Part shown: positions 3,517 through 17,522 of the stretch, piece after piece | Layout of the letters: each line of letters begins with the position of its first letter | Numbering within the stretch: the first letter of the stretch is position 1 | Assembly (NCBI RefSeq): GCF_041623545.1 | Contig: NZ_JBFJWS010000002.1 | Coordinates: forward strand, 26,262-90,261 | Direction: 5' to 3' | Length of the DNA: 64,000 bases | DNA from: Zhongshania sp. | Lineage (GTDB): Bacteria > Pseudomonadota > Gammaproteobacteria > Pseudomonadales > Spongiibacteraceae | The notes under the pieces: generated by a model | The model's input: the letters and a program-made list of their open reading frames with translations, nothing else | Told to the model about the DNA's origin: nothing | Database searches by the model: none | Made by a program: the position numbers and the translations under genes

Positions 3517-4194
3517 CTAAACCCTAAGCCCCTCAATCAGGGAAATAAGCGCCGCCTTAAATTGCACTTGGGCCTCAACATGGTCTTCGGCATGCGCAAT
3601 CGCCAATGACGCATCATGGAGTGCTCCCATGACCAGCGTTGCCAATGGCCCTGCGGGCTGCTCAGCGATAATTTTACGAGCCATTAACATCTCAAACGTC
3701 ACGACAAAGCCGTCCAATAAGTATTCAGACAGAATTTCGCGCCAGCGCTGCCAGCCCAGTACTGCAGGTCCGTCGATCAGCAGAATGCGCTGACACTCCT
3801 CATTTGAAGTGACCATTTTAAGGTGTGCGTCAATGGCAACAAGTAGCTGTTTCCAAGGATCGCCAGAAAAAGGTGCCGCAGCCTTGGCACCAATATCGTG
3901 CAGGTCGGCCGCAACAAGACGAAACACCGCTTCAAATAGCTCAGTCTTGCCCGCGAAATGATGGTACAGCGCCCCGCGTGTAGTGGCCGTTTCTAGCAAT
4001 AAATCACTGATGCCGGTTTGATTAAAACCTGAGCGGGCAAACAGCGTGCGCGCCCCTGCTAAAAGGCGATTCTGAGTAATAACTGCCCTAGCCTGAACAG
4101 CTTTTGGGTCTTTAACAGCGGTATTTTTTTTGCCCTTCGCGGTGCGACTTGACGCTTCTGCACGTATGGATCCTAATTTAATCTCTTGCCCCAC
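3517..4194 (-). CDS. TetR/AcrR-family transcriptional regulator (paralogue 2)
   Basis: 225 aa with a GTG start at 4194; AAGGG lies about 12 nt upstream. HTH block ARTLFARSGFNQTGISDLLLETATTRGALYHHFAGKTELF. Paralogue of 40..774. Confidence 0.85.
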   Translation of the reverse strand: MGQEIKLGSIRAEASSRTAKGKKNTAVKDPKAVQARAVITQNRLLAGARTLFARSGFNQTGISDLLLETATTRGALYHHFAGKTELFEAVFRLVAADLHDIGAKAAAPFSGDPWKQLLVAIDAHLKMVTSNEECQRILLIDGPAVLGWQRWREILSEYLLDGFVVTFEMLMARKIIAEQPAGPLATLVMGALHDASLAIAHAEDHVEAQVQFKAALISLIEGLRV

Positions 4195-4562: not shown

Positions 4563-6107
4563 ATGGGAATAATAATAAAGACTTACAAACCTTATAGGCT
4601 TAAATCTGATTGGTTTCAACGCATGGAATTTAAGCCGTACCTAAAAACGGTTTCAGCCTTAGTACTTTGCAATATATTTTTGACTGGCTGTGGCGGCAGT
4701 TCAGCCACGAATGATCAAAGGACCATAAATGTTGAGCCCGATGCGACCTACACCTCGCAAGTTGTTCAGCCCTACTCCGTTGCAACGTCGACATCCGTGC
4801 CAAGAGCAATTTGTGGTGCCGGATCCGAGCCAGAAACTGGTCTCCAGGGCCAATTGCCGTCGGAAGATTACGACAGCGGTCGTGCAGCTCGCGGTTATAC
4901 CTGTAATACAGAGTTGATCAGTCAATTAAACTACGAGTATATGGGAAGCTCAGGAAGCTTCAACGTAATGCGTTACGTCGATACAAAAGGCCACGAATGC
5001 GCGTATTTTGATACTTCTAATTTATCCCCCATAAATTTGTTCGGTGATACCGCAGGCGTCGCTGTAGTCGATATGTCTGATCTTGCTAATCCGGTGTTAG
5101 TAGACAGCCTAAAAACTCCTGCGATGTTGTCGCCGCACGAGTCACTAATACTTAATGAGAAACGGGGGCTGCTAATCGCTGTATTGGGCAACCCAGCGAC
5201 CTACCCAGGGATCATCGACATATATGACCTAAGCGAAGATTGTCGAGAACCAAAACTCAGATCTAGCCAACTCATTGCCGGTGTATTAGGTCACGAAAGT
5301 GGCATCTCCCCCGACGGCAACACCTTCTATACGGCATCCGCACTGGCACCCACAGTGTCCGCTGTTGACATCAAGAACCCTGACGAGCCCAAATTCCTAA
5401 GTGTTTTTCCACTAAATGGTCACGGAATTTCCATTAGTGATGATGGCAATACTGCTTATGTTACAAGTCTTGGCATAGTGCCATACGGTCCCCCGCCAGA
5501 ACTGACGGGCAAGGGTGTTGAAATTTTCGATGTTTCCGAAGTGCAAGCACGATTAGCGAATCCGATGATGCACCGTATTTCTAATATAGTCTGGGACGGT
5601 AACGGTGCACCTCAATACGCTGCACCCTTTCGCAACAGAGGGCGCTGGTATCTATTTGAGACAGACGAATTTGGCGCAGCGTCATCGCCAGGCCCTGGGT
5701 CGGCCCGGATAATTGATGTGACCGACAACACAGCACCCGAAATAATTGCTGATGTACGCTTAGAAGTACATCAGGAAGAGCACCTCACGGCGATTGAAAA
5801 TGACCCTGACGCCGCTAGCACCCCGGGTTACTCCGCTCATTATTGCGATGTCGAGCGCAAGGAAAGCCCGACAATTGCAGCATGTAGTATGGGAATCTCC
5901 GGTTTACGCGTATTTGACATTCGCAACCCGTATCGGCCTCGTGAAATTGCCTACTTCAATCCACCAAGCGATTTACGTGAGAATCGAGAAACAATATCTA
6001 CAATCTCTAGGCCAATTTTTGTTCGCGAGCGCAAAGAAATTTGGTATGCGGATTCTGCCAATTTTTACGTTGTAAGACTTACTAATAACGCTTGGCCAGA
6101 GCAATAA
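4563..6107 (+). CDS. LVIVD-repeat (beta-propeller-like) lipoprotein, paralogue A
   Basis: ATG at 4563 preceded by AAGGAG; an alternative ATG is at 4623. Lipobox LTGC followed by GGSS. Repeated units of the form hydrophobic-x-(V/I)-x-D-(V/I/M)-(S/T/R)-(D/N)-x-x-x-P: VAVVDMSDLANP, IIDIYDLSEDCREP, VSAVDIKNPDEP, ARIIDVTDNTAP, LRVFDIRNPYRP. Paralogue of 48294..49706. Confidence 0.75.
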   Translation: MGIIIKTYKPYRLKSDWFQRMEFKPYLKTVSALVLCNIFLTGCGGSSATNDQRTINVEPDATYTSQVVQPYSVATSTSVPRAICGAGSEPETGLQGQLPSEDYDSGRAARGYTCNTELISQLNYEYMGSSGSFNVMRYVDTKGHECAYFDTSNLSPINLFGDTAGVAVVDMSDLANPVLVDSLKTPAMLSPHESLILNEKRGLLIAVLGNPATYPGIIDIYDLSEDCREPKLRSSQLIAGVLGHESGISPDGNTFYTASALAPTVSAVDIKNPDEPKFLSVFPLNGHGISISDDGNTAYVTSLGIVPYGPPPELTGKGVEIFDVSEVQARLANPMMHRISNIVWDGNGAPQYAAPFRNRGRWYLFETDEFGAASSPGPGSARIIDVTDNTAPEIIADVRLEVHQEEHLTAIENDPDAASTPGYSAHYCDVERKESPTIAACSMGISGLRVFDIRNPYRPREIAYFNPPSDLRENRETISTISRPIFVRERKEIWYADSANFYVVRLTNNAWPEQ

Positions 6108-6136
6108 TTAAGCTATTGAGGACTGTACCCCCTACC

Positions 6137-6177
6137 ATGTTGATTAAGCTAACCTCTATATTCAGCTTGATCAACAT
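6137..6177. terminator. Imperfect 14-bp inverted repeat between convergent genes (candidate bidirectional terminator)
   Basis: ATGTTGATTAAGCT (6137-6150) pairs with AGCTTGATCAACAT (6164-6177), 13 of 14 complementary with a 13-nt loop. Lies between the stop of 4563..6107 (+) and the stop of 6245..6904 (-). No clear U-tract. Confidence 0.35.
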
Positions 6178-6244
6178 AGTTAGCACCTCAATCAACGGGG
6201 GCATTCAAGACACTTCTTACCCTAAGTTTTAATATTCAAAATTA

Positions 6245-6904
6245 CTATTTTGTGATCGCATTCAATGCCCTACGCATCATCATAAGCTCTTTCGTTTGTT
6301 CAATAATCATCCTTTGGGCGAGATTCCGGACGACTGGAAGCCTAGCAAACTCAGCGGCAAATTTTGCCATTGGAATTCCGCCTTCATGGTGTCGCAACAT
6401 CAATTCTAGGAAACGAGCGTCCCGTGCGTCTCGATCCATCTTCCGCAGCTCCTCAAGCTCCGAATTCTTCACTAATCCGGGCATACCTAGCTCAGAGTCA
6501 CGACAGTCTAATAAATATTGCTGAAGTTCCTCGCTTGGCAGTTTAGGCGCCAGTAGCATCCAATTCATGTCCATTGTAGCGGGATAAGTTTCCACCCCCC
6601 ACAATTGTAACCAACCGCGCATTGTCCCGATTTCTATCAGCTGCGCGGTGGATATTGAAAGCGCAAAATTACGCAGCTTAGATGGTCGCTTATCTGTAAC
6701 CACACGATCATCAAGCAATAATTGGGAAAGCAATACTGCTTGATCGTGATGGACACTCATGTATTGCGCAAACCCTATATCGATAGGACTAGCAGTCAAA
6801 GTATCACTATTTCTATTGGTATTAGCGAAGGGACTAAAATAACAAAATGCGAAGCCAGCACAAATAATAAGCATCGGTATGATTAATAATCGTTTAGCCA
6901 CCAT
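6245..6904 (-). CDS. DUF305-family protein (exported four-helix-bundle type)
   Basis: Two copies of the DUF305 HH signature: YMSVHHDQAVLLSQ and LMLRHHEGGIPMAKF. The start is most likely the internal ATG at 6904 (MVAKRLLIIPMLIICAG, signal anchor), because the longer ORF to 6973 would overlap the upstream gene by 50 nt. Confidence 0.7.
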   Translation of the reverse strand: MVAKRLLIIPMLIICAGFAFCYFSPFANTNRNSDTLTASPIDIGFAQYMSVHHDQAVLLSQLLLDDRVVTDKRPSKLRNFALSISTAQLIEIGTMRGWLQLWGVETYPATMDMNWMLLAPKLPSEELQQYLLDCRDSELGMPGLVKNSELEELRKMDRDARDARFLELMLRHHEGGIPMAKFAAEFARLPVVRNLAQRMIIEQTKELMMMRRALNAITK

Positions 6905-6923
6905 ATAATCTAGGACCAATAAT

Positions 6924-7580
6924 TTAGAGTTGAAATCCTGCCGCGACCCACCACGCCACGAAAACCGCGACAATAGTCACACACCCAATACGCCACCATG
7001 ACGCAAACGTAATTGGCTGAGCGTCATTTGAAATGCCTGATCCGGTAATCATTGATCGAATTAAATTAGAGCGTTTGTAGACCAGATAGAAAAGCACTGC
7101 CGCGATGTGTACCACAATCAATACCTGCAGGACGATAAAGCTGGTTTCATGCCAGTTCGCAAATTGGCGGGCTAGATCAAAATCGACGCGATAAGACAGT
7201 GGCCCAGACTCCAATCCATCAACATCGACTGCGAACAAACCGCTCACTAGCTGGCTTAGCAGAGCAAAAAGTAGAACCAGGCTACTCCAGCCTCCGAGGG
7301 GGTTATGCCCAGTGAATTGACTACGCTCCCGCGTCAATAAGCTAGGCAGGTAGCCCAAAACCTCTCCCGGCGCCCGAACAAAGTGGGTAAAGCGCGCTGT
7401 CGTCGACCCTACAAACCCCCATAAGAGCCGAAATATAAGCAGGCCAAGAACCGCATAGCCACTCATCAGATGCCAATCCATATGGTCATCGTGGGTCCAC
7501 CAGGAAAACGGGATTAACACTACCAAGGCCCAGTGCACGAGCCGTGTTGGTGCATCCCAAATTTTTCGTACTTGGTTCAT
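6924..7580 (-). CDS. Cytochrome b561-family membrane protein (CybB / Ni-Fe-hydrogenase b-type cytochrome-like)
   Basis: N-terminus IWDAPTRLVHWALVVLIPFSWWTHD. Four predicted TM helices with conserved His residues (HW..., HLMSGY, NWHETSF..VVHIAAV). The ATG at 7580 overlaps the upstream stop as ATGA (7577-7580). Confidence 0.8.
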   Translation of the reverse strand: MNQVRKIWDAPTRLVHWALVVLIPFSWWTHDDHMDWHLMSGYAVLGLLIFRLLWGFVGSTTARFTHFVRAPGEVLGYLPSLLTRERSQFTGHNPLGGWSSLVLLFALLSQLVSGLFAVDVDGLESGPLSYRVDFDLARQFANWHETSFIVLQVLIVVHIAAVLFYLVYKRSNLIRSMITGSGISNDAQPITFASWWRIGCVTIVAVFVAWWVAAGFQL

Positions 7581-8044
7581 TCGTCGAACCGGAATTTGTC
7601 GTGACAGCCTTTGCACTCACGGCCTAAAGACTTAAGTTGTGCCCGTGTTTTTTTCATGTCTTTTTGTTTCGCTACCAACACTAACTTATCGGCTTGTTCT
7701 ATGGCTTTGGTATAGCGACTTTCAAACTCCGCCTTATTCTTCCAAATACTTTCCAGCGCCTTGGTTTCTATTCCCGCCTCGGGACCGCTGCCCTCTGGAA
7801 ACATGGGTTGGACTTCGCGAAGCCCTGACGCAATCCGCTTTACCGAACTTTTTATCACAAAATTCATCGGCGCAGACTTGCGCGTCTCGTCACGAATGGC
7901 TTTCACTGCTGTACCAATTTCCCGGTACAAGGCCTGCCGTTGTTCAATAATTTCGGTATATTCAGCGCTTTGGCATATAGCGGCAATGGGGATAAACGCA
8001 AGGAATACGCCGAGCAAAAGTCGTTTATGTTTAACTAATCCCAT
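7577..8044 (-). CDS. Class II cytochrome c (cytochrome c-prime / c-556 family)
   Basis: 155 aa with a signal peptide and a four-helix-bundle-like sequence. The single heme motif CKGCH lies close to the C-terminus (GRECKGCHDKFRFDE), which is diagnostic for class II c-type cytochromes. Confidence 0.85.
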   Translation of the reverse strand: MGLVKHKRLLLGVFLAFIPIAAICQSAEYTEIIEQRQALYREIGTAVKAIRDETRKSAPMNFVIKSSVKRIASGLREVQPMFPEGSGPEAGIETKALESIWKNKAEFESRYTKAIEQADKLVLVAKQKDMKKTRAQLKSLGRECKGCHDKFRFDE

Positions 8045-8113
8045 GGTGAAAATCCGATATAGTTATTTTCTGTTAATGTAAATTTTGGAATACCAGTGCC
8101 GTAAAGCCTAAAC

Positions 8114-8416
8114 TTAGGCCTTCGCCACCCAAGAATCACACAGGCTTTCAGCGGCCACGCCACCACCGCTGAACATCATGCAAGTGCCGCACGACGCGGT
8201 TTGAGTTGCCTTAAAAAAAGCACAGCCACCGCAGCTTTTCTGTGAGTCAGTTGACACCGCAATAAAGTTAAGTGATTTACGTAGATTGCGGTCACTCATT
8301 GGTAGCTTTGCCATATCAAAGCAGCTTTCTGCCAGAGCCGTGTTGCCCAAAACAATACCGGCACCACCGACGAGTAAATTCACAAAGGATCGCCGTGTGC
8401 ATTTAGCCTCAAGCAT
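8114..8416 (-). CDS. High-potential iron-sulfur protein (HiPIP) with Tat signal
   Basis: Twin-arginine leader TRRSFVNLLVGGAGIVLGNTALA. C-terminal cluster motif C-GG-C-x13-C-MMFSGGGVAAESL-C-DSW matches the HiPIP pattern CxxC...C(x)F(P/S)G...C(x)SW. Confidence 0.85.
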   Translation of the reverse strand: MLEAKCTRRSFVNLLVGGAGIVLGNTALAESCFDMAKLPMSDRNLRKSLNFIAVSTDSQKSCGGCAFFKATQTASCGTCMMFSGGGVAAESLCDSWVAKA

Positions 8417-8452
8417 AATTTACCCTCATTCTTACAAGTTTGCTTTTCTGCG

Positions 8453-9667
8453 TCACTGCGCGGCAGCTGATTCTAGCGTTTTAGCTCGCTGCGAAAACGT
8501 CGGAATCGGTGTGAGATCTGGGCGAACAATAAAAGCCGGAACCGCTTCAATACGAAACGCGGTGGACAATGTACTGCATTTACCCGTCACCGGATCGCGA
8601 TCGCCATCAGCGTAGGTGTGCACCGCGTAATACATCGCGTGACAGTCTAAGCCGGTGAATAACTCGCCCTCGGCGTCAGCGCTTGACGGCGCAATATACT
8701 GATTCTGGGATATATAGCCGCCAAGAAAGCCCGTAGCAGTTCCATCTTCAAGCAATTTAAGCTCTAAGCGCGGCCGCTCGATTTTAAACGCGGGCCGACG
8801 GTTAGTCATAATATCGGGAACAAACAAGTCGGCGATGACGTCAGTTTCCAAAACCCCATTAACAATCCGCCCTGCAAATTGCCGATGTAAATGCGGGTCT
8901 ATTTTGGGCGACAGACTCGCGCCGGCCATCACTTCACCACTGGGATTTTTCACCATGTTTTCGTTGCCAGCGTAAATATCAACACGGACACTTGAATCAT
9001 TTTTGACGTTATCCACGTCGCTAATTTCAATTAGCATCGACCACATACCATTGCGCATTGCCTGGGTAAAATAAGGTACCAGCGTCCCTTTCTCCCGCAA
9101 GCCGTTCACACAAGCCAGCACCCGGCCAAGTTGATTGTCGATGCCCTTCCGGCCTTGGGAGTCGGTGTACTGCTTATGTGGGCACGTGTAATCGGTGATT
9201 GCGGAATCCTTGGTTTTGCCATCGAGATCAAGGCCGTCATTTCGATCCCCCGCCAGTGTATACATTTGCGGGTCTGGCGCTGAAAGCGGCTCGGCACAAA
9301 CGTTCTCGCCATTGGGGCCGCGCTCTATCATTCTGCGGAATAACTCTTTGCGATTTTCTGCTTGCAGTAAACGCTGTTGCTCAGCGGGCGGCTTGGTCGC
9401 CAAGAACTCCTTGGTCGAGGTGATCGGCCAAACACCCTTAGGACACGCGGTTTCACCTTGCTCCATGGCATAGTAAAAATAGGTAACGACGAAGCCGAGT
9501 TTCTTGCCTTCGGCCGCGGTCCTTTTAAGGCCCGCAGCGGCTACATCTGTACTCGCCGCCGTCGCAAATATAGCTGTGCTTGCCACGGTAGTCAGGGACG
9601 CTACCAACAAAAACTTACGCACCGAAAGAAGTAAAAAATCGCTCATTGCGACTATTATCGTTTTCAT
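8453..9667 (-). CDS. Secreted protein of unknown function (orphan, six Cys)
   Basis: 404 aa with an N-terminal hydrophobic signal (LLVASLTTVASTAIFATAAS). I recognise no motif. The ATG at 9667 overlaps the upstream stop as ATGA. Coding is supported by length, composition and operon context. Confidence 0.6.
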   Translation of the reverse strand: MKTIIVAMSDFLLLSVRKFLLVASLTTVASTAIFATAASTDVAAAGLKRTAAEGKKLGFVVTYFYYAMEQGETACPKGVWPITSTKEFLATKPPAEQQRLLQAENRKELFRRMIERGPNGENVCAEPLSAPDPQMYTLAGDRNDGLDLDGKTKDSAITDYTCPHKQYTDSQGRKGIDNQLGRVLACVNGLREKGTLVPYFTQAMRNGMWSMLIEISDVDNVKNDSSVRVDIYAGNENMVKNPSGEVMAGASLSPKIDPHLHRQFAGRIVNGVLETDVIADLFVPDIMTNRRPAFKIERPRLELKLLEDGTATGFLGGYISQNQYIAPSSADAEGELFTGLDCHAMYYAVHTYADGDRDPVTGKCSTLSTAFRIEAVPAFIVRPDLTPIPTFSQRAKTLESAAAQ

Positions 9668-10446
9668 TGTTCGATCACCTTGCTAGCGCCACTATTACCA
9701 ACGGTCAAACTTCCAATGGCGGCTGCGGGCGAGCTTTCAACCCGCACGATCTGCCAGACGCCTCCGGCATTGGCGCCACGCATATCCTGTGCCCCAGTAT
9801 CACCGCTATAAGTGTAAACAAGCCGTCCGCTATAGGCCCACTGGCGGATGCCATCGGGTCGGTCTACCGGTGTCCAGTCACCTAGCTTGGTCGCCAGCGC
9901 CGCTGCACGTACCGGCGGCCATACTTCGAGACATTCGGCATTACAGGCCGGCATCTCACCATCTTCCGCAAAGGTATACAGGGTCTGGCCACGGTAGTCC
10001 GTCAGTACAAAACCAACACTTCGGCGCTTAACCGCAACCGCAGGCGGCGCAGTCAATTTTGGCGCAATGCCCTCGTACACCAGGGCGTGCCAAACCCCGC
10101 CACTGCCTCCGCCATTAGCAACCCCAGGGCTTGAATCCCCCGTAAAATGGTAAACTGGGCGGCCCTTATAACTCCATTGCCAGCGCAAATCGCGGCGCAG
10201 TACCGGTTTCCAGTCACCAACCGCAACATCATCTGCTGCCGCCGCCAATGGCGGCCATACGTCCAAGCAAGTATCGACACAATCATCGCCACCCATATTG
10301 CCTAAATCACCGTCGTAGACGTAGAGCGTGCGCCCGCTATCTCCGGCGACAAACTGTTCCGGCTGTTCACCCTGCACCGTAATAAACTGCGGCCATAATC
10401 CGGCGCTAACCAAAACGGCTGTTGCTACTGCTATTGAAATTCCCAT
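9664..10446 (-). CDS. Secreted repeat protein, COG4315 / Yx(FWY)xxD-motif family
   Basis: Two internal repeats: GRTLYVYDGD...CVDTCLDVWPPL...GDWKPV...WQWSYKGRPVYHFTGD and GQTLYTFAEDG...CNAECLEVWPPV...GDWTPV...RQWAYSGRLVYTYSGD. N-terminal signal sequence. Confidence 0.75.
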   Translation of the reverse strand: MGISIAVATAVLVSAGLWPQFITVQGEQPEQFVAGDSGRTLYVYDGDLGNMGGDDCVDTCLDVWPPLAAAADDVAVGDWKPVLRRDLRWQWSYKGRPVYHFTGDSSPGVANGGGSGGVWHALVYEGIAPKLTAPPAVAVKRRSVGFVLTDYRGQTLYTFAEDGEMPACNAECLEVWPPVRAAALATKLGDWTPVDRPDGIRQWAYSGRLVYTYSGDTGAQDMRGANAGGVWQIVRVESSPAAAIGSLTVGNSGASKVIEQ

Positions 10447-10456
10447 ATAAACGCCC

Positions 10457-11800
10457 TTAAGCCAAAACGTCGCTAATAGACTGACTCACTTCTAGGGAGC
10501 CCTTGCCGAACGAGCCCGCGCGTACATTCATTGCGTGCATAGCGGTAAGTGCCGTTTTGGTTACCGGAGCGCCCTCCTCACGGATGTGCAGCCCGGTCTT
10601 GAATCGACCACCCGCACGCCCCGCGATAATCACCGGCAACTCATCGAGGGAATGCATTTTTGCAAAGGAAGTATCTGAGTGTGCGTAGACCAAGGTATTG
10701 TCGAGTAAAGTACTATCGCCCTCCTTGGCCGCCGCAAGCTGCTTCATCAAATAAGCAAAACCCTCCAGACTTTTTTGCGCGAACCACGTCGACTCGGGTT
10801 GATAACCGAGATTGGCATCCACCGCCTCTTGGTGGGTCAATATATGATGGGTATCGGCTGAACCGGGCTTTCGCAGCGTAGAAGCAGAGGGCGAAAACAC
10901 CATATTAAAGACTTTAGTCTGGTGGCAAAGCAGCGCCATCACGGTAAGGTCGACCATTAACTTATGACTTTCGGTGACCACTTCGATGTCGGTACTGGGC
11001 CTTGACTCTGCCGGGGCACCGCTCGGTACTGTGCAGGCAAGCGCTGGCGCCGGTTCCTTCAACTGCAGCGCGAGCTGATTTTCCATCTCCCTCACCGAGG
11101 TAAAATAAGCATCTAGCTTTTGGCGATCTGCGGCGCCAACTTGGCGCATTAGTGCAGCGCGCTCGTCGCCAAACGCTGACAACACACTGTGCCTAAGTAT
11201 GATATCTGGGCCGGGCTCAAATGTTGCCGAGTTTGGATCGCGAAACCCAGGACCGAACAACCGCGTATAAAGGCTCAAAGGCGTGAGTTCAGGTACCGCA
11301 ACGGCGCCCGCACCCGCCGAACTATAGCTATCGGTGTGGCCGCCGGTAGCTGCCATATCGAGACTGCGAAACCGAACACCACCGCCCACCGCGCGGGCGA
11401 TTAAGGCGTCAAAAGACGGGTCTGGCAGATCTTCTTTATTGGTCGGCGCGTAGCCGGTGCGTAACGACCATACGGCTGAGATATGCGGCTCATTTGCCCG
11501 GCCATCAAGCGGTGCCGTGTAACCAGAAAACAGTGAGAAGTGTTGTCGATAAGCGGCCAGCACCTCTAGTTCCGGCGTCATTTCCCAGTTTGCGCCGGTC
11601 GATTCCGGCACCCAGCGATCGGGATTCATACCGCACCCCCAGTGCCAAGTACCAAACCGCACTGGAATTTCCAAACCGGTATCGGCAAAGGCTTTGCCAT
11701 TATCGTTTAGCAATATATCCAATAACGGCATACTCAAGCTAACCGCTGCGCCCTTAAACGTCGAACGAAGTAGACGACGCCGAGTAATATCACGAGTCAT
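10457..11800 (-). CDS. DUF1552-family protein with Tat signal
   Basis: 447 aa. Twin-arginine leader MTRDITRRRLLRSTFKGAAV. Contains HHILTHQ, which resembles the HxxSHH signature of this family. Start overlaps the DUF1592 stop as ATGA (11797-11800). The DUF1552 plus DUF1592 pairing is typical. Confidence 0.75.
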   Translation of the reverse strand: MTRDITRRRLLRSTFKGAAVSLSMPLLDILLNDNGKAFADTGLEIPVRFGTWHWGCGMNPDRWVPESTGANWEMTPELEVLAAYRQHFSLFSGYTAPLDGRANEPHISAVWSLRTGYAPTNKEDLPDPSFDALIARAVGGGVRFRSLDMAATGGHTDSYSSAGAGAVAVPELTPLSLYTRLFGPGFRDPNSATFEPGPDIILRHSVLSAFGDERAALMRQVGAADRQKLDAYFTSVREMENQLALQLKEPAPALACTVPSGAPAESRPSTDIEVVTESHKLMVDLTVMALLCHQTKVFNMVFSPSASTLRKPGSADTHHILTHQEAVDANLGYQPESTWFAQKSLEGFAYLMKQLAAAKEGDSTLLDNTLVYAHSDTSFAKMHSLDELPVIIAGRAGGRFKTGLHIREEGAPVTKTALTAMHAMNVRAGSFGKGSLEVSQSISDVLA

Positions 11801-13476
11801 GACTTGTCCCCTTGTTGTATAGCCACTTGATCAGCACTGATCTCTACCGGTGGCGGCGAATAAAATTCGCGGCTAAGTGCGATCGTGCGAAGGAGCTTAG
11901 TTAAATTAAAGCCGCGCTCTGCATACTGCTCGTAAATGGCGTCAATTCGCTCGGAATCCTGTTGCTCAGGCGCGCGACCGGCACCGTAACTGTATAGGCG
12001 ATTGATAAGACATGACGCAGCGGCGCCATCTTTGGCAAGTGTTGCACCAAGACCCGCGGCACCAATAAAGCTTTGATTGTGCAAACTACCGCTTAAATCA
12101 ATTTCCGCACCGTTCTCGGTCATTCGCATCCCGGCAGCGCCGTCGAAACTTTCCAAGGGCAGACCGAGGGGATCCATTAGCTTGTGGCAGGCCACACACA
12201 TTGGCTCGGTATTATGCGCAGTCAGCCGCTGGCGCGCTGTGGCGAAATTCGGATCAGAGACATTTTGTACCAAGGCGAAATCAACATTTGGTGGCGGTGC
12301 CGGAACCGATTGACACAGAATCAGCTCGCGCAAAGCCTTGCCCCGTAAAGTCGGTGAACTACGGCCGGGATGAGAATGCGCCATTAGGAACGCTGGTTGC
12401 GCTAAAATTCCCGCACGGGGATCGCCGGCCGCTAACTCACGCGCTTCCCAGCCACTGGGCGAGGTTACCGGTTCGCTATAGAGAAAACCGAGGGCGCGCG
12501 AGAAAAAAGTGTGCCTCGTCGTAAACACAGCGCGGTAATCTTGATCGCGACGCAATAAGGTGTCTACGATCGTGCGCAGTGTCTGCTCGCGCGCGTCACT
12601 AGCCAGCTTGGCGCTATACCGTGGGTAAATAGTGGGATCTTTTTGCAGTGCTAGTAAATCGTCCAAAGCCAGCATATCGTTGAAAAATGCCCGCACGCCT
12701 TTCTCATAACGCGGTGACGCCAATAAGCGATCTATCTCACGATGCAAGCCATTATCTGTGCGTAAACTGCCATTCTCAGCGGCGCTGAGTAATGCCTCAT
12801 CCGGCGGCGCATTCCAAATTAGAAAACTAATACGCGAAGCCGTCGAGTAATCATCAAGTCGGTAGCCATCGCCCTGCCAGGTCGCACGCTCAACTCGGAA
12901 TAAAAAGGGCGCGGTTTCCAACATCGCGCTAAGCGACAAAGAGAGTCCCCAGTAAAAATCTTTACCGACTTTAGCACCCTTGCGCGCAATGCCAACAAAG
13001 CGTTCTAACTCAGCCTCATTCAAGGCGCGACGATACAGAAAGCGACCCGCACGGGAAAAAAAAGTACGCGCGCAACGATCATCCGCTGCTTGGGTATTTA
13101 CAGGTTTACAGCCGATTAGCAGTTCGCGATGTGCAAGGTCCGTTACCTGTTCAGCAATCTGGCGCGCTGCAGCATCATATTGTTCGAACCCTGAGGCGCT
13201 AACTGAGGCTTGCGCTGTGCCAATCGCGATTAACCCTTCTCTGCGGGGATCTGGCTCTAAGCGCGCGGAGATTTCGATATCGTCACCAAAAATATCGGCG
13301 ATGGTTTGACGATATTGTTCTTGCGTCAGGCGCCTTAAGGAAACGATATCATCATGACCAGTACTTGCCATCGCCGCTTGGTTGCCAAGAAAAACTACAA
13401 CAACTAACAGCAAATAGGCAAACCAAGCTCGCGGTGTAGTGGCGCTTTTGCACTCAAGTATTTTGAACGTAGCCAT
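11797..13476 (-). CDS. DUF1592/DUF1588/DUF1595-type protein with a CxxCH motif
   Basis: 559 aa with a signal anchor. The heme-type motif CVACHKLMDPLGLPLESFD is characteristic of the DUF1588 region. Usual upstream partner of DUF1552. Confidence 0.75.
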   Translation of the reverse strand: MATFKILECKSATTPRAWFAYLLLVVVVFLGNQAAMASTGHDDIVSLRRLTQEQYRQTIADIFGDDIEISARLEPDPRREGLIAIGTAQASVSASGFEQYDAAARQIAEQVTDLAHRELLIGCKPVNTQAADDRCARTFFSRAGRFLYRRALNEAELERFVGIARKGAKVGKDFYWGLSLSLSAMLETAPFLFRVERATWQGDGYRLDDYSTASRISFLIWNAPPDEALLSAAENGSLRTDNGLHREIDRLLASPRYEKGVRAFFNDMLALDDLLALQKDPTIYPRYSAKLASDAREQTLRTIVDTLLRRDQDYRAVFTTRHTFFSRALGFLYSEPVTSPSGWEARELAAGDPRAGILAQPAFLMAHSHPGRSSPTLRGKALRELILCQSVPAPPPNVDFALVQNVSDPNFATARQRLTAHNTEPMCVACHKLMDPLGLPLESFDGAAGMRMTENGAEIDLSGSLHNQSFIGAAGLGATLAKDGAAASCLINRLYSYGAGRAPEQQDSERIDAIYEQYAERGFNLTKLLRTIALSREFYSPPPVEISADQVAIQQGDKS

Positions 13477-13583
13477 TCGGACCTCCTCACCAGCGCCAAG
13501 CCCCTATAGAGGCCGCGACTGTTATTTTTATTGATGCAGAGTATGATTCCAGTATTCGCAAGTCCAATGCTAAATTTACCCAT

Positions 13584-13598
13584 ATCTATGTCATAGAT
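13584..13598. promoter_or_regulatory. LysR-type (LTTR) box, ATC-N9-GAT / T-N11-A palindrome
   Basis: ATCTATG-T-CATAGAT, with perfect 7-bp arms. Lies in the 183-nt divergent intergenic region between the DUF1592 operon (start 13476) and the LysR gene (start 13660). Confidence 0.55.
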
Positions 13599-13659
13599 GT
13601 ATAGATGGAAAATAAAGCGACATATCGAAGCCAAATACCATTCAGAATGGAATACCGCC

Positions 13660-14544
13660 ATGATCGAAATCACATTACTAGAGCATTTTATCGCCGTCGC
13701 TAACGCCAGTAGCTTTACCCGCGCGGCAGTGCAACTGCATATTAGTCAGCCGGTACTCAGTAGGTCGATAAAACGCCTTGAAGAAAAAGTAGGCACGGCG
13801 CTGCTAGAGCGGACGAGTCGCAAGGTAGCCTTGACCGCCGCCGGGGAGGCCTTTCTTTCCGAAGCTTATTTTATTATTGAACGTTTAAAAATTGCCGCCA
13901 ACGACGCGCGCCGCATAGGCAATGGCTTCACCGAAAAATTACGCATACGGGTTTGCCCATCAGTCAACTGGCACGCACAAGAGATTAGCCACGCGATTCG
14001 TCGGTTCCAAGGCAAGTGGCCTGACGTTCAGGTAGAAATAAGTCCGTTAATGAGTGTCAATCAAGCGGCCGCACTGCTCGCAGCGGATATTGATATTGGT
14101 TTTATTAACTTAGAAGAGGTTGACTGCACTGACCTAGAACACAAACACATTACCTCAGTGGTACCATGCGTGGCTGTTCCAAGCAGTTGGAAACTGCCAA
14201 AATCGGGTGTGACCCTATTCGAATTACGCGACCGGCCTTGGATGATTCCAGATCCAAAACTCGCCCCATCCGCGTATGACAAATTTTCTAAGGTCTGCCG
14301 CTCTACTGGCTTTGAGCCTCAAATTGCGGTTTTTGCCGAGGATGGTGCCACCGGTGCAATCCAAGTCGCCTGCGGCCTTGGCGCTGCGTTTGTGGAGCAG
14401 CCAGTGAATAATCCAACTGTTTTCGAGGGCATGGAGTTCATTCCCTTAAAAGACCTGCCCGATTCATTAATTGTGCATTACGCAATTGCGTGGTCGGCTA
14501 CCGCACCGTCCTCTCAAATTGGCAACTTCCTATCAGTCTATTGA
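13660..14544 (+). CDS. LysR-family transcriptional regulator
   Basis: Start taken at the internal ATG 13660 (MIEITLLEHFIAVANASSFTRAAVQLHISQPVLSRSIKRLEEKVGTALLERTSR, the LTTR wHTH). A C-terminal substrate-binding domain follows. Confidence 0.88.
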   Translation: MIEITLLEHFIAVANASSFTRAAVQLHISQPVLSRSIKRLEEKVGTALLERTSRKVALTAAGEAFLSEAYFIIERLKIAANDARRIGNGFTEKLRIRVCPSVNWHAQEISHAIRRFQGKWPDVQVEISPLMSVNQAAALLAADIDIGFINLEEVDCTDLEHKHITSVVPCVAVPSSWKLPKSGVTLFELRDRPWMIPDPKLAPSAYDKFSKVCRSTGFEPQIAVFAEDGATGAIQVACGLGAAFVEQPVNNPTVFEGMEFIPLKDLPDSLIVHYAIAWSATAPSSQIGNFLSVY

Positions 14545-14697
14545 CCAAGTTGGCAAAGCGACGGTTTGGCTGCTAAAAGTCATACTGGCAACGAGCAATT
14601 AACAACTTAATTTGCTTCCTCGTAGTATGGCCTCGACCAGTCAAAGACCCCGATTTTAATTCATCAGGGCTCTGCAGCGTTTATGGATCCGAACGAG

Positions 14698-16221
14698 TTA
14701 AGCAAGCAAAGCCTTAAACGTTTCGCGAAGCACATTCTTTTGTACTTTACCCATGGTATTTCTTGGCAACTCATCAAGGAATACGGCTTTTTTAGGCACT
14801 TTAAAGTTGGCCACCGACGTTTTCATTGCGCTAATAATAGCCTCTTCGCTTAACTCAGTTGCGCCATCCGCTACAATAACCGCCACGATGGCTTCGCCAA
14901 AATCTTTGTGGGGCACACCGATCACCGCAGATTCTTTAACCCCTGGCAAATCATCAATGATCAATTCAAGTTCTTTGGGGTAAACATTTAAACCGCCAGT
15001 AATAATTAGGTCTTTGGCCCGGCCGACAATGGATACATAGCCGTCTTCAGAAATAACGCCTTTATCGCCGGTATTAAAAAAACCGTCGGCGGTGAAATCT
15101 TCAGCTGTTTTCTCTGGCATTTTCCAATACCCCTTGAAGACATTGGCGCCTTTCACTTGTAAATCACCGATTTCGCCAGGCGCTAATACCTCGCCACTTT
15201 CGCCGACGACACGAACGTCAACACCTGGCAGAGCAAAGCCTACTGTCCCCGCTTTTCTTAGACCTGATAAGGGATTAGAAGTATTCATATTGGTTTCGGT
15301 CATACCATAGCGTTCTAAAATACGGTGGCCGGTGCGCTGCTCAAATTCATTAAATGTTTCCGCCAATAGCGGCGCCGAACCAGAAACAAACAAGCGAATA
15401 TTTTTCACTACGGCTTTATCGAATTTATTTGAATCAAGCAAACGTGTGTAGAACGTGGGGACGCCCATCATTACCGTACACTTAGGGAGTAGTTCAATCA
15501 CCGCATCAGTGTTAAACCCTGGTAGCCAGCGCATACTGGCGCCACTGAGCAATACGCAACCCAAAGCAACGAACAAACCATGCACATGGAAGATCGGTAA
15601 AGCGTGCAATAAAACATCATCTTCATTAAATGCCCAGGCCTCATTTAAGGACTGAGCATTGGTTAACAAATTATTATGCGTCAACATTATGCCTTTAGGC
15701 ACACCGGTGGTGCCCGAGGAATACAGCAGCGCTGCCAAATCATCCTTGTCGCGATGAACTACGGCAAATTCTTCGCCACAGCTTCGCGAGTCGGCAATCA
15801 GGCTACCGCTGCCATCGGCGTTCAATGTGAGTAAATTTGCAATGCCATGCTTTTTAAGCAACGGCCCCATTAGCTCAACGCTCTCGCTATCACATACCAC
15901 AACTGCTGGAGCGGCATTGCTTAAGAAATAATCTAACTCGGAGCTTTGATAACCGGTATTCAGTGGATGAAACACAAAGCCGCCACGTAAACAGGCCAAA
16001 TACAGGCTCAGCGCCTCCGGCGACTTATGGACCTGCACCGACACGCGATCACCAATCTGCACGCCGAGATTAGACAGGTAGTTAGCAAGACGAGCTGACT
16101 CTTTATCAATATCGGCGTAGCTATACTTTATGTTAGCCCCCGTCACCAATAAGGGTTTGGCAGCGTGCGACTTAAATTGTTTTTGAAAGTGGAAGAATAG
16201 ATTGAAGTTTGAATCTGTCAT
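14698..16221 (-). CDS. matB: Malonyl-CoA synthetase (AMP-forming)
   Basis: 507 aa. AMP-binding motif LLYSSGTTGVPKGIMLTH. The N-terminal block RVSVQVHKSPEALSLYLACLRGGFVFHPLNTGYQSSELDYFLSNAAP closely resembles my recollection of rhizobial MatB (VAVQVEKS.EAL.LYLACLR.G.V.LPLNTAYT..ELDYF). Directly downstream of madLM. Confidence 0.8.
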   Translation of the reverse strand: MTDSNFNLFFHFQKQFKSHAAKPLLVTGANIKYSYADIDKESARLANYLSNLGVQIGDRVSVQVHKSPEALSLYLACLRGGFVFHPLNTGYQSSELDYFLSNAAPAVVVCDSESVELMGPLLKKHGIANLLTLNADGSGSLIADSRSCGEEFAVVHRDKDDLAALLYSSGTTGVPKGIMLTHNNLLTNAQSLNEAWAFNEDDVLLHALPIFHVHGLFVALGCVLLSGASMRWLPGFNTDAVIELLPKCTVMMGVPTFYTRLLDSNKFDKAVVKNIRLFVSGSAPLLAETFNEFEQRTGHRILERYGMTETNMNTSNPLSGLRKAGTVGFALPGVDVRVVGESGEVLAPGEIGDLQVKGANVFKGYWKMPEKTAEDFTADGFFNTGDKGVISEDGYVSIVGRAKDLIITGGLNVYPKELELIIDDLPGVKESAVIGVPHKDFGEAIVAVIVADGATELSEEAIISAMKTSVANFKVPKKAVFLDELPRNTMGKVQKNVLRETFKALLA

Positions 16222-16295
16222 TGTAAATTCTCTACTAATTCTTTGAATGTGAAACTATTTCATAAGCGCTGCTTTTAAGAAGCACGGTTCCGGCG

Positions 16296-17063
16296 TCAAT
16301 CTGGAAACAGCACCCTAACAATCAGGAATAGAACCGAGGGCGCTAACAAACAACCTACCCCAGTATAGAATGTAGCCGTCATAGCTCCGTAGGGAACCAA
16401 CTTCGGATCAGTAGCAGCAAGCCCACCCGCAACACCACTGGTGGTACCCATTAAACCGCCATAAACCATCGCTGATTGAGGGTTGTTTAAACCAATACTT
16501 GAAGCGACAAAGGGTGTTCCCACCATCACCAATACCGATTTCACTAAGCCAGCTGCGACGCTGAGCGCGATAACCTCTGAACTTGCGCCCAAGGCCGTGC
16601 CAGTCACAGGCCCAACAATATAGGTAGCGGCACCCGCGCCGATAGTGCTAATGGATACTGCGTCAGTATAACCAAAGCCAACGGCGACCACGGCGCCAAC
16701 GACAAATGATAAAACTACGCCGAGGATAATCGAAACCACACCGGCTAGGCCTGCATGTTTTATCTCGTCGATATCAGCGCCGTAGGCTGTCGCCACAATA
16801 GCGAAATCGCGGAACATGGCACCACCCAAAACCGCAACACCGGCGAACAGCGGGAAGTCGGCAATGCCTTTACTGCCATCTGTTATTAGACCGCTAAAAT
16901 AGGCAATGACAAGCCCTAAGGTAATTGCTATAGCCGAGCCATGAAGATGGCCACGGGTAAACTTATTAGAAAACCAATAAGAAAACCAAACAAGCACACC
17001 AACAAATAAAAATGCCGTGAGAATGCCATTTTTTATTAATACCGCCTCAAGAGAATCTATCAT
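16296..17063 (-). CDS. madM: Malonate transporter subunit MadM
   Basis: 255 aa, polytopic membrane protein. Size, N-terminus (MIDSLEAVLIKNGILTAF...) and the 1-nt overlap with a 127-aa membrane partner (TAATG at 17061-17065) match the MadL/MadM two-component malonate carrier. Confidence 0.75.
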   Translation of the reverse strand: MIDSLEAVLIKNGILTAFLFVGVLVWFSYWFSNKFTRGHLHGSAIAITLGLVIAYFSGLITDGSKGIADFPLFAGVAVLGGAMFRDFAIVATAYGADIDEIKHAGLAGVVSIILGVVLSFVVGAVVAVGFGYTDAVSISTIGAGAATYIVGPVTGTALGASSEVIALSVAAGLVKSVLVMVGTPFVASSIGLNNPQSAMVYGGLMGTTSGVAGGLAATDPKLVPYGAMTATFYTGVGCLLAPSVLFLIVRVLFPD

Positions 17064-17446
17064 TATGATTTATCTCCCGTGAGGGGTTTCTTGCCATTAC
17101 CGATTTTTGATAATACCGGCACCATCAAAAAACCAACAACAACCGCTAGCACACCAGCTACCACCGCCATCCAGCCACTCGATAACGCTACCACCATATT
17201 TTGCTTGGCCGCCATTGCCACAATAATCGGAATATACATGGCGCTCCAAAACTTGATCCCAGACTCTGACATCGGCGATAAATGGAACTTTTTACTGGAT
17301 ATATTTGACATGATAATAAGAAACATCATGGCAATACCAACCCCGCCAACGTTCGCCTGAACACCGATAGCGATACCTAGCATATCACCTAGATAGCCAC
17401 CCAAAAGTGTACAGAACGCAAGTAAAGCAACACCGTATACAATCAT
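17063..17446 (-). CDS. madL: Malonate transporter subunit MadL
   Basis: 127 aa with four predicted TM helices (MIVYGVALLAFCTLLGGYLGDMLG...). Paired with madM and followed by matB. Confidence 0.72.
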   Translation of the reverse strand: MIVYGVALLAFCTLLGGYLGDMLGIAIGVQANVGGVGIAMMFLIIMSNISSKKFHLSPMSESGIKFWSAMYIPIIVAMAAKQNMVVALSSGWMAVVAGVLAVVVGFLMVPVLSKIGNGKKPLTGDKS

Positions 17447-17522
17447 TTCTTATTAACCTTTATTATTAATATCAAGTGTATTTGAGGGTTGGTAAACTGA
17501 AGATATCAACATAAACTATAAT

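Follow-up and report, generated by a model that had tools for sequence, protein, structure and literature searches.

What reaction, if any, is carried out by eight tightly packed genes that encode electron carriers side by side with exported proteins of uncharacterised families? This question is raised by a locus at positions 6245-13476 of a 64,000-nucleotide (nt) stretch of DNA from Zhongshania sp. (NZ_JBFJWS010000002.1, 26,262-90,261 of the forward strand), which we call the window and whose numbering is used for all coordinates. The locus is filled by eight open reading frames (ORFs), all on the minus strand, which encode a DUF1592-family protein, a DUF1552 protein, a Lipoprotein_15 repeat protein, a protein of 404 amino acids (aa), a high-potential iron-sulfur protein (HiPIP), a cytochrome c', a cytochrome b561 and a DUF305 protein. 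With somewhat better than even confidence, we propose that they form a conserved, LysR-controlled periplasmic metallo-haem oxidoreductase system, which acts on an imported substrate and is wired to the respiratory chain. The first-pass annotation of this DNA had also read the locus as a periplasmic oxidoreductase; its view of the genes as one unit stands, as does the CxxCH motif of the DUF1592 protein, which proves invariant, while its statements on a missing enzyme, an orphan protein and a metal substrate are corrected below.

A gene set that recurs with changing order

Twenty comparison loci were assembled from contig look-ups with homologues of the 404-aa and DUF1552 proteins, from pattern scans of genomes and metagenomes, and from annotated plasmids, and their six-frame ORFs were searched with the window proteins. 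The pattern scans, made with the 404-aa alignment, yielded two genome and three metagenome loci, their degenerate patterns being narrow. Counting the window as well (21 loci), the DUF1592 protein occurs together with DUF1552 in 18, the 404-aa family in 16 and Lipoprotein_15 in 12, and the DUF1592 and DUF1552 genes, co-oriented in the window, are adjacent in the 16 comparison loci holding both. These four proteins are a core that extends well beyond Proteobacteria.

Among the 14 proteobacterial loci with enough flanking sequence, cytochrome c' is present in 13, the HiPIP in 9 and b561 in 7. The core, c', HiPIP and b561 recur in genomes and metagenome-assembled genomes (MAGs) of Novosphingobium, Sphingobium, Phenylobacterium, Caulobacteraceae and Sphingomonadaceae, and in metagenomic contigs. 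In the closest clade, whose DUF1552 proteins are 64-74% identical to that of the window, a divergent LysR gene is followed by DUF1592, DUF1552, Lipoprotein_15 and 404-aa genes, and usually then by HiPIP and c'; this order is seen in Novosphingobium sp. G106, a Caulobacteraceae MAG, a Sphingomonadaceae MAG and several metagenomic contigs. The metagenomic contig L027 carries the exact seven-gene order of the window through b561. In a second clade (47-50% identity), comprising Phenylobacterium, Novosphingobium bradum, Novosphingobium RL4 and Sphingobium plasmids, the components are rearranged. The carrier-bearing proteobacterial loci show at least five gene arrangements: for example, c' and HiPIP are divergent from DUF1592 (L016, L017), c' and b561 lie directly downstream of DUF1552 (L018, L020, L021), or c' lies upstream and HiPIP with b561 downstream (L019). 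Because the content is kept despite changes in order and orientation, these loci indicate selection on linkage and not inherited synteny alone. The earlier claim that the genes are one functional unit, which had been made to depend on gene order being shared by relatives, is thus upheld.

In the plasmid database PLSDB, 13 of 13 plasmids with a 404-aa homologue carry DUF1552, nearly always within a few kilobases (kb), and the plasmids of the 13 best c' matches also all carry DUF1552, nearly always a few kb apart; these plasmids represent about four lineages, with many close relatives. Such linkage bears on the possibility that the locus holds two unrelated cassettes, a nitric oxide (NO) or oxidative-stress module of c' and b561, with or without HiPIP, lying beside a DUF1592/DUF1552 nutrient-acquisition locus. 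Cytochrome c' is widely held to be an NO-binding stress protein, c'-b561 pairs occur elsewhere, and in the window c' and b561 form an ATGA-coupled pair of their own. However, c' stays with the module at all but one of the 14 loci despite the rearrangements, it is sometimes apart from b561, either upstream (L008, L019) or divergent (L016, L017), and its closest PLSDB homologues are found only beside DUF1552. We therefore consider two independent cassettes very unlikely.

A predicted haem protein coupled to a candidate catalytic protein

The DUF1592 protein matches the five Pfam models of the DUF1592-family/PSCyt3 architecture, PSD3 (PF07626), PSD5 (PF07637), PSD4 (PF07631), PSCyt3 (PF07627) and PSD2 (PF07624), with 51.6, 47, 102, 92 and 50.1 bits, respectively (cut-offs 23-34). 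Its CVACH motif lies at residues 427-431. C427, C430, H431, H421 and H369 are invariant across 10 homologues, and all of these except H369 are also invariant in a set of 15 sequences with distant homologues; the CxxCH is kept even in homologues with merely weak matches. From this motif the protein is predicted to carry one c-type haem, of which H421 is a possible sixth ligand. A profile search found no significant PDB sequence relatives. The stretch SHPGR, considered as a sulfatase motif, is a chance match, since S368 and P370 are not conserved.

The DUF1552 protein matches HXXSHH (PF07586) with 158.5 bits (Pfam cut-off 30), as do 37 of 37 aligned relatives, and has an RRRLL motif at residue 7, whose arginine pair, typical of twin-arginine translocation (Tat) leaders, is invariant among the relatives. 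The sequence HHILTHQ corresponds to residues 318-324. At the HxxSHH position the protein reads S-A-D-T-H-H-I-L-T-H, where only H319 and H323 are invariant in distant members. H319, H323, D367, S375 and H383 are invariant in 16 sequences that include ones at 23-27% identity, and H106 and D131 are nearly invariant in the same alignment. When the AlphaFold2 model (predicted local distance difference test score, pLDDT, 83) was compared with the PDB using Foldseek, the top 50 matches all belonged to the alkaline-phosphatase superfamily, with E-values of 2.9e-5 to 3e-3, probabilities of about 1 and template modelling (TM) scores of 0.31-0.41. The matched enzymes are steroid, choline and glycan sulfatases, LtaS/LtaP, phosphonate monoester hydrolases, alkaline phosphatase and a phosphodiesterase. 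The model predicts for DUF1552 a fold of the alkaline-phosphatase/sulfatase superfamily, interrupted near residues 174-292 by a large helical insertion. A metal is probably bound by its conserved His and Asp side chains (H319, H323, D367 and H383, with H106 and D131), and the HxxxH...D...H arrangement of the C-terminal half seems to recall the DxxxH...DH...H metal ligands of alkaline phosphatase, nucleotide pyrophosphatase/phosphodiesterase and cofactor-independent phosphoglycerate mutase. The predicted fold and the invariant His/Asp together make DUF1552 the best catalytic candidate. The locus had been described as having no known catalytic enzyme, a description that gives way to a candidate whose model matches alkaline-phosphatase-superfamily structures only.

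Two exported partners of the core

The Lipoprotein_15 protein (PF03640) exceeds the gathering score with 131.6 bits over four Yx(FWY)xxD repeats; its C56, C60, C168 and C172 are invariant. It falls below the NCBIfam equivalog for the SCO0930 lipoprotein (122.8 versus 275 bits), and a sequence search of the PDB gave no significant match. Of the eight products it has the least convincing export signal, because it lacks both a lipobox cysteine (no Cys in the first 55 residues) and a basic n-region.

The 404-aa protein matches no Pfam or NCBIfam model and had been taken for an orphan. Searched with a profile built from 41 homologues, a set of 1.84 billion cluster representatives gave 2009 matches at E ≤ 1e-3, of which 471 have E ≤ 1e-30 (clusters at 50% identity), which places the protein in a family of about 2000 clusters. 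Homologues lie directly upstream of DUF1592/DUF1552 in distant lineages (L010, L024, L025). In other bacteria, Lipoprotein_15 repeats are fused into the polypeptide of this family, in six of ten long members (P0245, P0246, P0254, P0261, P0323 and P0343) and in either order. This Rosetta-stone fusion, matched in the window by genes that overlap through ATGA, argues for a joint function of the Lipoprotein_15 and 404-aa proteins.

The AlphaFold model of the 404-aa protein is mostly beta (pLDDT 88.7) and has no match among PDB folds (best E 0.1, TM 0.16), and the family profile gave no significant match to PDB sequences. Two cysteines are invariant in the family, as are the acidic, Gly-rich loops NDGLDLDG, GIDNQ and ADGDRDP, which appear to resemble the DxDxDG calcium loops known from other proteins. 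Since no conserved His or Met suggests a redox centre, the protein is most simply viewed as a binding or scaffold domain.

Longer forms of about 550 aa also exist in this family (P0243; P0057, L010 10001-11671; P0088, L024 8001-9692), with an N-terminal extension of about 150-200 aa. The extension of P0243 is borderline for Hcp (PF05638; 23.4 versus 23.5 bits), and one JGI record calls a member 'Hcp'. In L018, the plasmid pMSHV of Sphingobium herbicidovorans, the homologue is annotated as two overlapping hypothetical coding sequences (8986-9609 and 9570-10331); both halves match the family profile, and the strain may have a frameshift or a pseudogene here.

Electron carriers and the DUF305 protein

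The HiPIP (PF01355; 31.4 bits, Pfam cut-off 22) has RRSFV at residue 8, and R8, R9, C62, C65, C76, C79 and C93 are invariant in seven sequences. By comparison with the Allochromatium HiPIP, we take C62, C65, C79 and C93 to be the cluster ligands and C76 to be an extra cysteine. In two loci the HiPIP gene was missed by the public gene predictions (L007, 11214-11621; L008, 11204-11527; phmmer E-values of 3e-12 and 2e-31), and neighbourhood surveys based on annotation will therefore undercount it.

The cytochrome c' (PF01322, Cytochrom_C_2) scores 88.9 bits (cut-off 26.5) and has CKGCH at residue 144, with C144, C147 and H148 invariant; there is no invariant Met among 11 homologues, a feature that bears on whether the haem is five-coordinate or, as in low-spin c-556 types, has Met as sixth ligand. 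The b561 matches PF01292 (Ni_hydr_CYTB) with 81.5 bits (cut-off 30.1) and has four strongly hydrophobic segments and invariant His16, 37, 92, 144 and 158. It scores far below the Ni/Fe-hydrogenase b-type cytochrome model TIGR02125 (28.2 versus 121.5 bits).

The last product of the operon is a DUF305 protein (PF03713; 115.6 bits in Pfam) with 15 Met in 219 aa, which scores below the CopM metallochaperone model of NCBIfam (NF049983; 64 versus 90 bits). DUF305 is found at none of the 20 other loci. The GC content at third codon positions (GC3) of its gene is the lowest of the operon, 0.44 versus 0.48-0.57 in the other seven, which together with the absence of a counterpart elsewhere fits a later, lineage-specific addition. 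Horizontal transfer was considered from GC content, but GC3 values of 0.44-0.57 over the eight genes, against about 0.5 around them, are not convincing.

The DUF305 protein was also the basis on which a metal or metalloid substrate had been suggested. In such a system the module would oxidise or reduce a receptor-imported ion or chelate of copper, iron or manganese, and DUF305 and Lipoprotein_15 would bind metal. A Met-rich, weakly CopM-like DUF305 protein is compatible with this, as are the CxxxC motifs of Lipoprotein_15, the His-rich site of DUF1552 and the best NCBIfam matches of the neighbouring receptor, which are to siderophore and haem types, all below threshold; HiPIPs also occur in Fe(II) oxidation pathways, for example PioC and Iro. 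However, DUF305 is confined to the window, the genes surrounding the module elsewhere belong to organic catabolism and not to metal resistance, and the regulators are of LysR, TetR and AraC types and not MerR, CopRS, Fur or ECF types. A metal substrate is accordingly downgraded to a highly unlikely explanation, the least probable that we considered.

Operon organization and genomic context

The junctions of the operon were read again from the sequence (Table 1). ATGA start/stop overlaps lie at 11797-11800, 9664-9667 and 7577-7580, and the remaining four junctions are gaps of 10, 36, 69 and 19 nt, in agreement with the first-pass annotation, which had given eight co-directional genes with three such overlaps and gaps of at most 69 nt. 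Its domain calls likewise agree with the hidden Markov model annotation, in which all families score above the Pfam gathering thresholds and the 404-aa protein has no match, and its motifs (CVACH, CKGCH, RRRLL, TRRSF, HHILTHQ and Yx(FWY)xxD) were all located in the translations. Every soluble product has an N-terminal hydrophobic stretch, which together with the segments of b561 supports the earlier statement that all products are exported or in the membrane. The starts of b561 (ATG 7580) and DUF305 (ATG 6904) match the public gene calls, and longer GTG/TTG ORFs were not used.

A single transcript for the eight genes is plausible from their spacing. A scan for terminator-like sites within the operon gave no excess over shuffled sequence, and a single promoter-like site (minus strand, 13594-13567) precedes the first gene, as a match to the sigma-70 consensus only. 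Rfam found no riboswitch or leader RNA in 5900-14700.

Table 1 Features of the redox locus and its surroundings in the window
Feature	Position	Strand	Remarks
DUF1592-family protein (mono-haem type)	11797-13476	-	559 aa; PSD3-PSD5-PSD4-PSCyt3-PSD2; Sec signal or N-terminal anchor
DUF1552 (HXXSHH) protein	10457-11800	-	447 aa; Tat leader; ATGA overlap with DUF1592
Lipoprotein_15 (COG4315) protein	9664-10446	-	260 aa; four repeats; two CxxxC-WPP motifs
404-aa protein, exported, beta-rich	8453-9667	-	No Pfam/NCBIfam match; ATGA overlap with Lipoprotein_15 gene
HiPIP-type [4Fe-4S] protein	8114-8416	-	100 aa; Tat leader TRRSFV
Cytochrome c' (class II)	7577-8044	-	155 aa; signal peptide; C-terminal CKGCH
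Cytochrome b561 (PF01292), polytopic	6924-7580	-	218 aa; start overlaps c' stop (ATGA)
DUF305 protein, Met-rich	6245-6904	-	219 aa; Pfam
Divergent LysR-family regulator	13660-14544	+	Start as in public gene calls; longest ORF from 13597
Divergent intergenic/promoter region	13477-13659	.	Sigma-70-like site at 13594-13567, minus strand
TonB-dependent receptor	896-3253	-	Candidate substrate importer, putative association
TetR-family regulator beside receptor	3517-4194	-	Putative association

The LysR regulator encoded at 13660-14544 probably regulates the operon: its homologues are divergent from DUF1592 in six loci (L007, L008, L011, L012, L015, L028) and downstream in L027; more generally, the gene divergent from the first one of the module codes for a LysR or AraC regulator. 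Close homologues of the window TetR (177-190 bits) lie beside the module in L011 and L012, and in L018 and L024 the annotation places TetR genes upstream. Besides the window, nine loci have a TonB-dependent receptor a few kb from the module: in L008, L011, L016 and L018-L021 the distance is at most about 6 kb, and in the distant L010 and L024 the receptor is directly upstream of the module, right before the 404-aa homologue. NCBIfam and PDB searches gave only generic matches below threshold for the subfamily of the window receptor.

The neighbouring genes at other loci encode P450, short-chain dehydrogenase/reductase (SDR), SnoaL-like and Rieske oxygenase proteins, acyl-CoA dehydrogenases, resistance-nodulation-division (RND) efflux components and Abhydrolase_3/BD-FAE esterases, surroundings that are typical of organic-compound catabolism; no metal-resistance gene context was seen at the loci outside the window. 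All-against-all clustering for further conserved neighbours gave only antisense ORF artefacts and scattered generic SDRs. The Abhydrolase_3/BD-FAE genes (hormone-sensitive lipase, HSL, type) lie a few kb from the module in several clades, namely in L010 (14946-16097 and 19569-20705), L011 (from about 14367 onward), L027 (2966-3913 and 14466-15566), L028 (12296-13267), L007 (13485-14426) and L017 (12251-13303), and the alpha/beta-hydrolases of L011 and L027 are close homologues (510 bits). These recurring esterases may hint at an ester-containing organic substrate.

Other genes of the window surround the operon. Convergent with it, at 4563-6107 on the plus strand, is a 514-aa exported protein with no Pfam family in the public gene calls, a score of 19.6 versus 100 bits for the NCBIfam 'choice-of-anchor B' model and no homologue at the other loci. 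Beyond LysR, at 14698-17500 on the minus strand, is a malonate-type cluster of an AMP-binding acyl-CoA synthetase gene followed by MadM and MadL transporter genes; the cluster is likewise found in identical public contigs, and at other loci it does not accompany the redox module. TonB-dependent receptors are unusually numerous in the region: three minus-strand ORFs of about 790 aa lie at 21066-23453, 23583-25970 and 32177-34540, of which the first two are homologous to the receptor at 896-3253 and the third is likened to receptors by size only.

Proposed mechanism

In the reading that we prefer, the catalytic core would be the translationally coupled pair of a Sec-exported DUF1592 protein carrying haem c and a Tat-exported DUF1552 protein carrying metal on an alkaline-phosphatase-type scaffold, which may form a complex. 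Lipoprotein_15 and the beta-rich 404-aa domain would be an accessory pair, which probably binds or presents the substrate. Cytochrome c' and HiPIP would carry electrons between the haem of DUF1592 and the membrane, where b561 would couple these carriers to the quinone pool. The path from b561 through c-type haem to HiPIP that the first-pass annotation gave is likewise a putative order. The substrate would most likely be a compound that crosses the outer membrane through the neighbouring TonB-dependent receptor, and the operon would be induced through LysR. HiPIPs usually act as acceptors from periplasmic dehydrogenases. Because of this role, of the precedent of Tat-exported dehydrogenases with a PF01292 anchor and of the catabolic context, we slightly favour a system that oxidises its substrate and passes the electrons to the respiratory chain.

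Several observations weigh against this proposal. The fold match of DUF1552 is remote, as seen from its TM scores and large root-mean-square deviation; a profile search gave no significant sequence-level link to the PDB, and none of the 37 relatives matches Pfam Sulfatase or DUF1501 at E ≤ 10. To our knowledge, no redox enzyme belongs to the alkaline-phosphatase superfamily. The first beta-strand of DUF1552 ends in WHWGCG, without a conserved acidic residue, and the C/S-x-P-x-R formylglycine motif is absent, so that DUF1552 is not a canonical sulfatase or phosphatase. Five distant DUF1592/DUF1552 loci (L010, L022-L025) are without dedicated carriers, as is the proteobacterial locus L011 in its 16 kb, and many loci are related by descent, which makes the counts overstate independence. 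Finally, a HiPIP usually has too high a potential for the reduction of ubiquinone via b561, and not all three carriers therefore fit one linear oxidative chain.

The fold could instead be taken at face value, with DUF1552 hydrolysing imported esters to free their sulfate or phosphate, the haem of DUF1592 being structural or a sensor, and the carriers only poising or reporting its redox state. The members of the alkaline-phosphatase superfamily known to us are all hydrolases or transferases, and the predicted fold of DUF1552 lies within it; alpha/beta-hydrolases recur beside the module, and sulfatase genes often adjoin PSCyt genes in Verrucomicrobia (PMC5615132). Such a hydrolase would, however, have to do without the canonical nucleophile motif and the first-strand Asp ligand, and the up to three dedicated carriers conserved with the module are more than a simple hydrolase needs, which leaves this explanation quite unlikely.

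The potentials of the carriers bear on our main rival explanation, in which electrons would flow from quinol to b561, to c'/HiPIP, to the haem of DUF1592 and finally to the metal site of DUF1552, where a high-potential oxidant would be reduced, or O2 or peroxide activated, with oxidative transformation of the imported substrate. This logic resembles that of MsrPQ, or of a lytic polysaccharide monooxygenase with a cytochrome donor. The usual potentials run downhill from ubiquinol to b561 and c' and then to HiPIP, an order that fits this mode at least as well as oxidation, and each of the three carriers has a role in it. The presence of the module in catabolic islands with P450s, Rieske oxygenases and esterases is also in its favour, as is the enrichment of PSCyt genes, some with carbohydrate-binding modules (CBMs), in oxic lake layers, inversely to glycoside hydrolases (PMC5615132), and the finding of a Cellvibrio DUF1592 protein, listed under CBM2, among the proteins of a lignocellulose-degrading community (PMC6004670). 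On the other side, no oxygenase-type motif or fold was detected in the module proteins, and b561 is present at just half of the 14 loci. We judge this reductive or oxygenase mode unlikely.

Our preferred oxidative system can be pushed one step further, to the tentative and in our view doubtful proposal that DUF1592/DUF1552 is the first redox enzyme on an alkaline-phosphatase scaffold, oxidising TonB-imported substrates with the aid of Lipoprotein_15 and the beta-rich module. If true, the same chemistry would be expected in hundreds of planctomycete and verrucomicrobial PSCyt/DUF1552 pairs and, by analogy, in PSCyt/DUF1501 pairs, and such pairs would stand as oxidative equivalents beside the glycoside hydrolases and sulfatases that turn over organic matter.

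Significance

PSCyt/PSD proteins paired with DUF1552 or DUF1501 make up some of the largest expansions of uncharacterised proteins known from Planctomycetes and Verrucomicrobia; the hosts of the Planctomycetes-Verrucomicrobia-Chlamydiae (PVC) group have dozens of paralogues and are hard to manipulate. The proteobacterial version, as one operon with its own regulator and carriers, offers a tractable route to a pair that has remained uncharacterised for twenty years, and it occurs in culturable Proteobacteria (Sphingobium herbicidovorans, Novosphingobium, Phenylobacterium and Zhongshania). In addition, a third and a fourth partner family are defined, one of which has no database model or PDB fold match, and the predicted placement of DUF1552 in a known structural superfamily would narrow the chemistry that can be tested. 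The PSCyt/DUF1552 domains were first described in Rhodopirellula baltica. The pairs have repeatedly been flagged as probable electron-transfer modules (PMC3542564, PMC5615132), and full-text literature searches found no functional study of DUF1592, DUF1552, PSCyt3, COG4315/SCO0930 or the c'-b561 pairing. What seems to be new is a conserved module in Proteobacteria that brings its own c', HiPIP and b561, along with two further partner families that are fused in other bacteria, the fold predicted for DUF1552 and the recurring receptors and regulators nearby.

Comparison with known systems

In general organization the module resembles Sox, TsdA, arsenite oxidase and PioABC, where the enzyme, small binding proteins and HiPIP are all periplasmic; Sox has the hydrolase SoxB alongside a haem c enzyme and the carrier pair SoxYZ. 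Pfam, NCBIfam and PDB sequence searches found no homology to Sox, Tsd, Aio or Pio components among the module proteins. [NiFe]-hydrogenase-1 (HyaABC) and formate dehydrogenase-N (FdnGHI) likewise combine a Tat-exported catalyst, an FeS carrier and a quinone-linked PF01292 cytochrome b. In the Zhongshania module, in contrast, the catalytic subunit would be unrelated, the FeS carrier is a soluble HiPIP and not a ferredoxin-type subunit, c' and a haem c subunit are added, and b561 is distant from the hydrogenase cytochrome b model (28 versus 121.5 bits). The reductive alternative is modelled on MsrPQ (YedYZ), whose Tat-exported periplasmic enzyme receives electrons from a haem b protein in the membrane; the MsrPQ families are not those of b561 and DUF1552, and MsrPQ has no soluble carriers. 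With the alkaline-phosphatase superfamily, DUF1552 shares the predicted core fold and the conserved His/Asp of the C-terminal half, whereas it has the helical insertion and differs in the absence of the C/S-x-P-x-R motif, the first-strand acidic residue and sequence similarity.

The closest parallels are found in PVC bacteria. Electron transport was proposed for their DUF1501-PSCyt1/PSCyt2/PSD1 module (Kamneva et al. 2012, PMC3542564), which follows a parallel logic, with a Tat-exported uncharacterised protein beside a multi-domain protein with a cytochrome c motif; it is built from other Pfam families, no DUF1552-DUF1501 sequence link was detected, and no accessory carriers are reported for it. 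The PSCyt3/DUF1552 pairs of Planctomycetes and Verrucomicrobia (He et al. 2017, PMC5615132) share with the Zhongshania pair the same two Pfam architectures, their adjacency, the Tat leader of DUF1552 and the CxxCH of PSCyt3. The planctomycete pairs are massively expanded, in contrast to the single copy in the 64-kb window, and the Zhongshania module adds two conserved exported partners, the carriers c', HiPIP and b561, and a divergent LysR regulator, none of which has been described for the PVC pairs.

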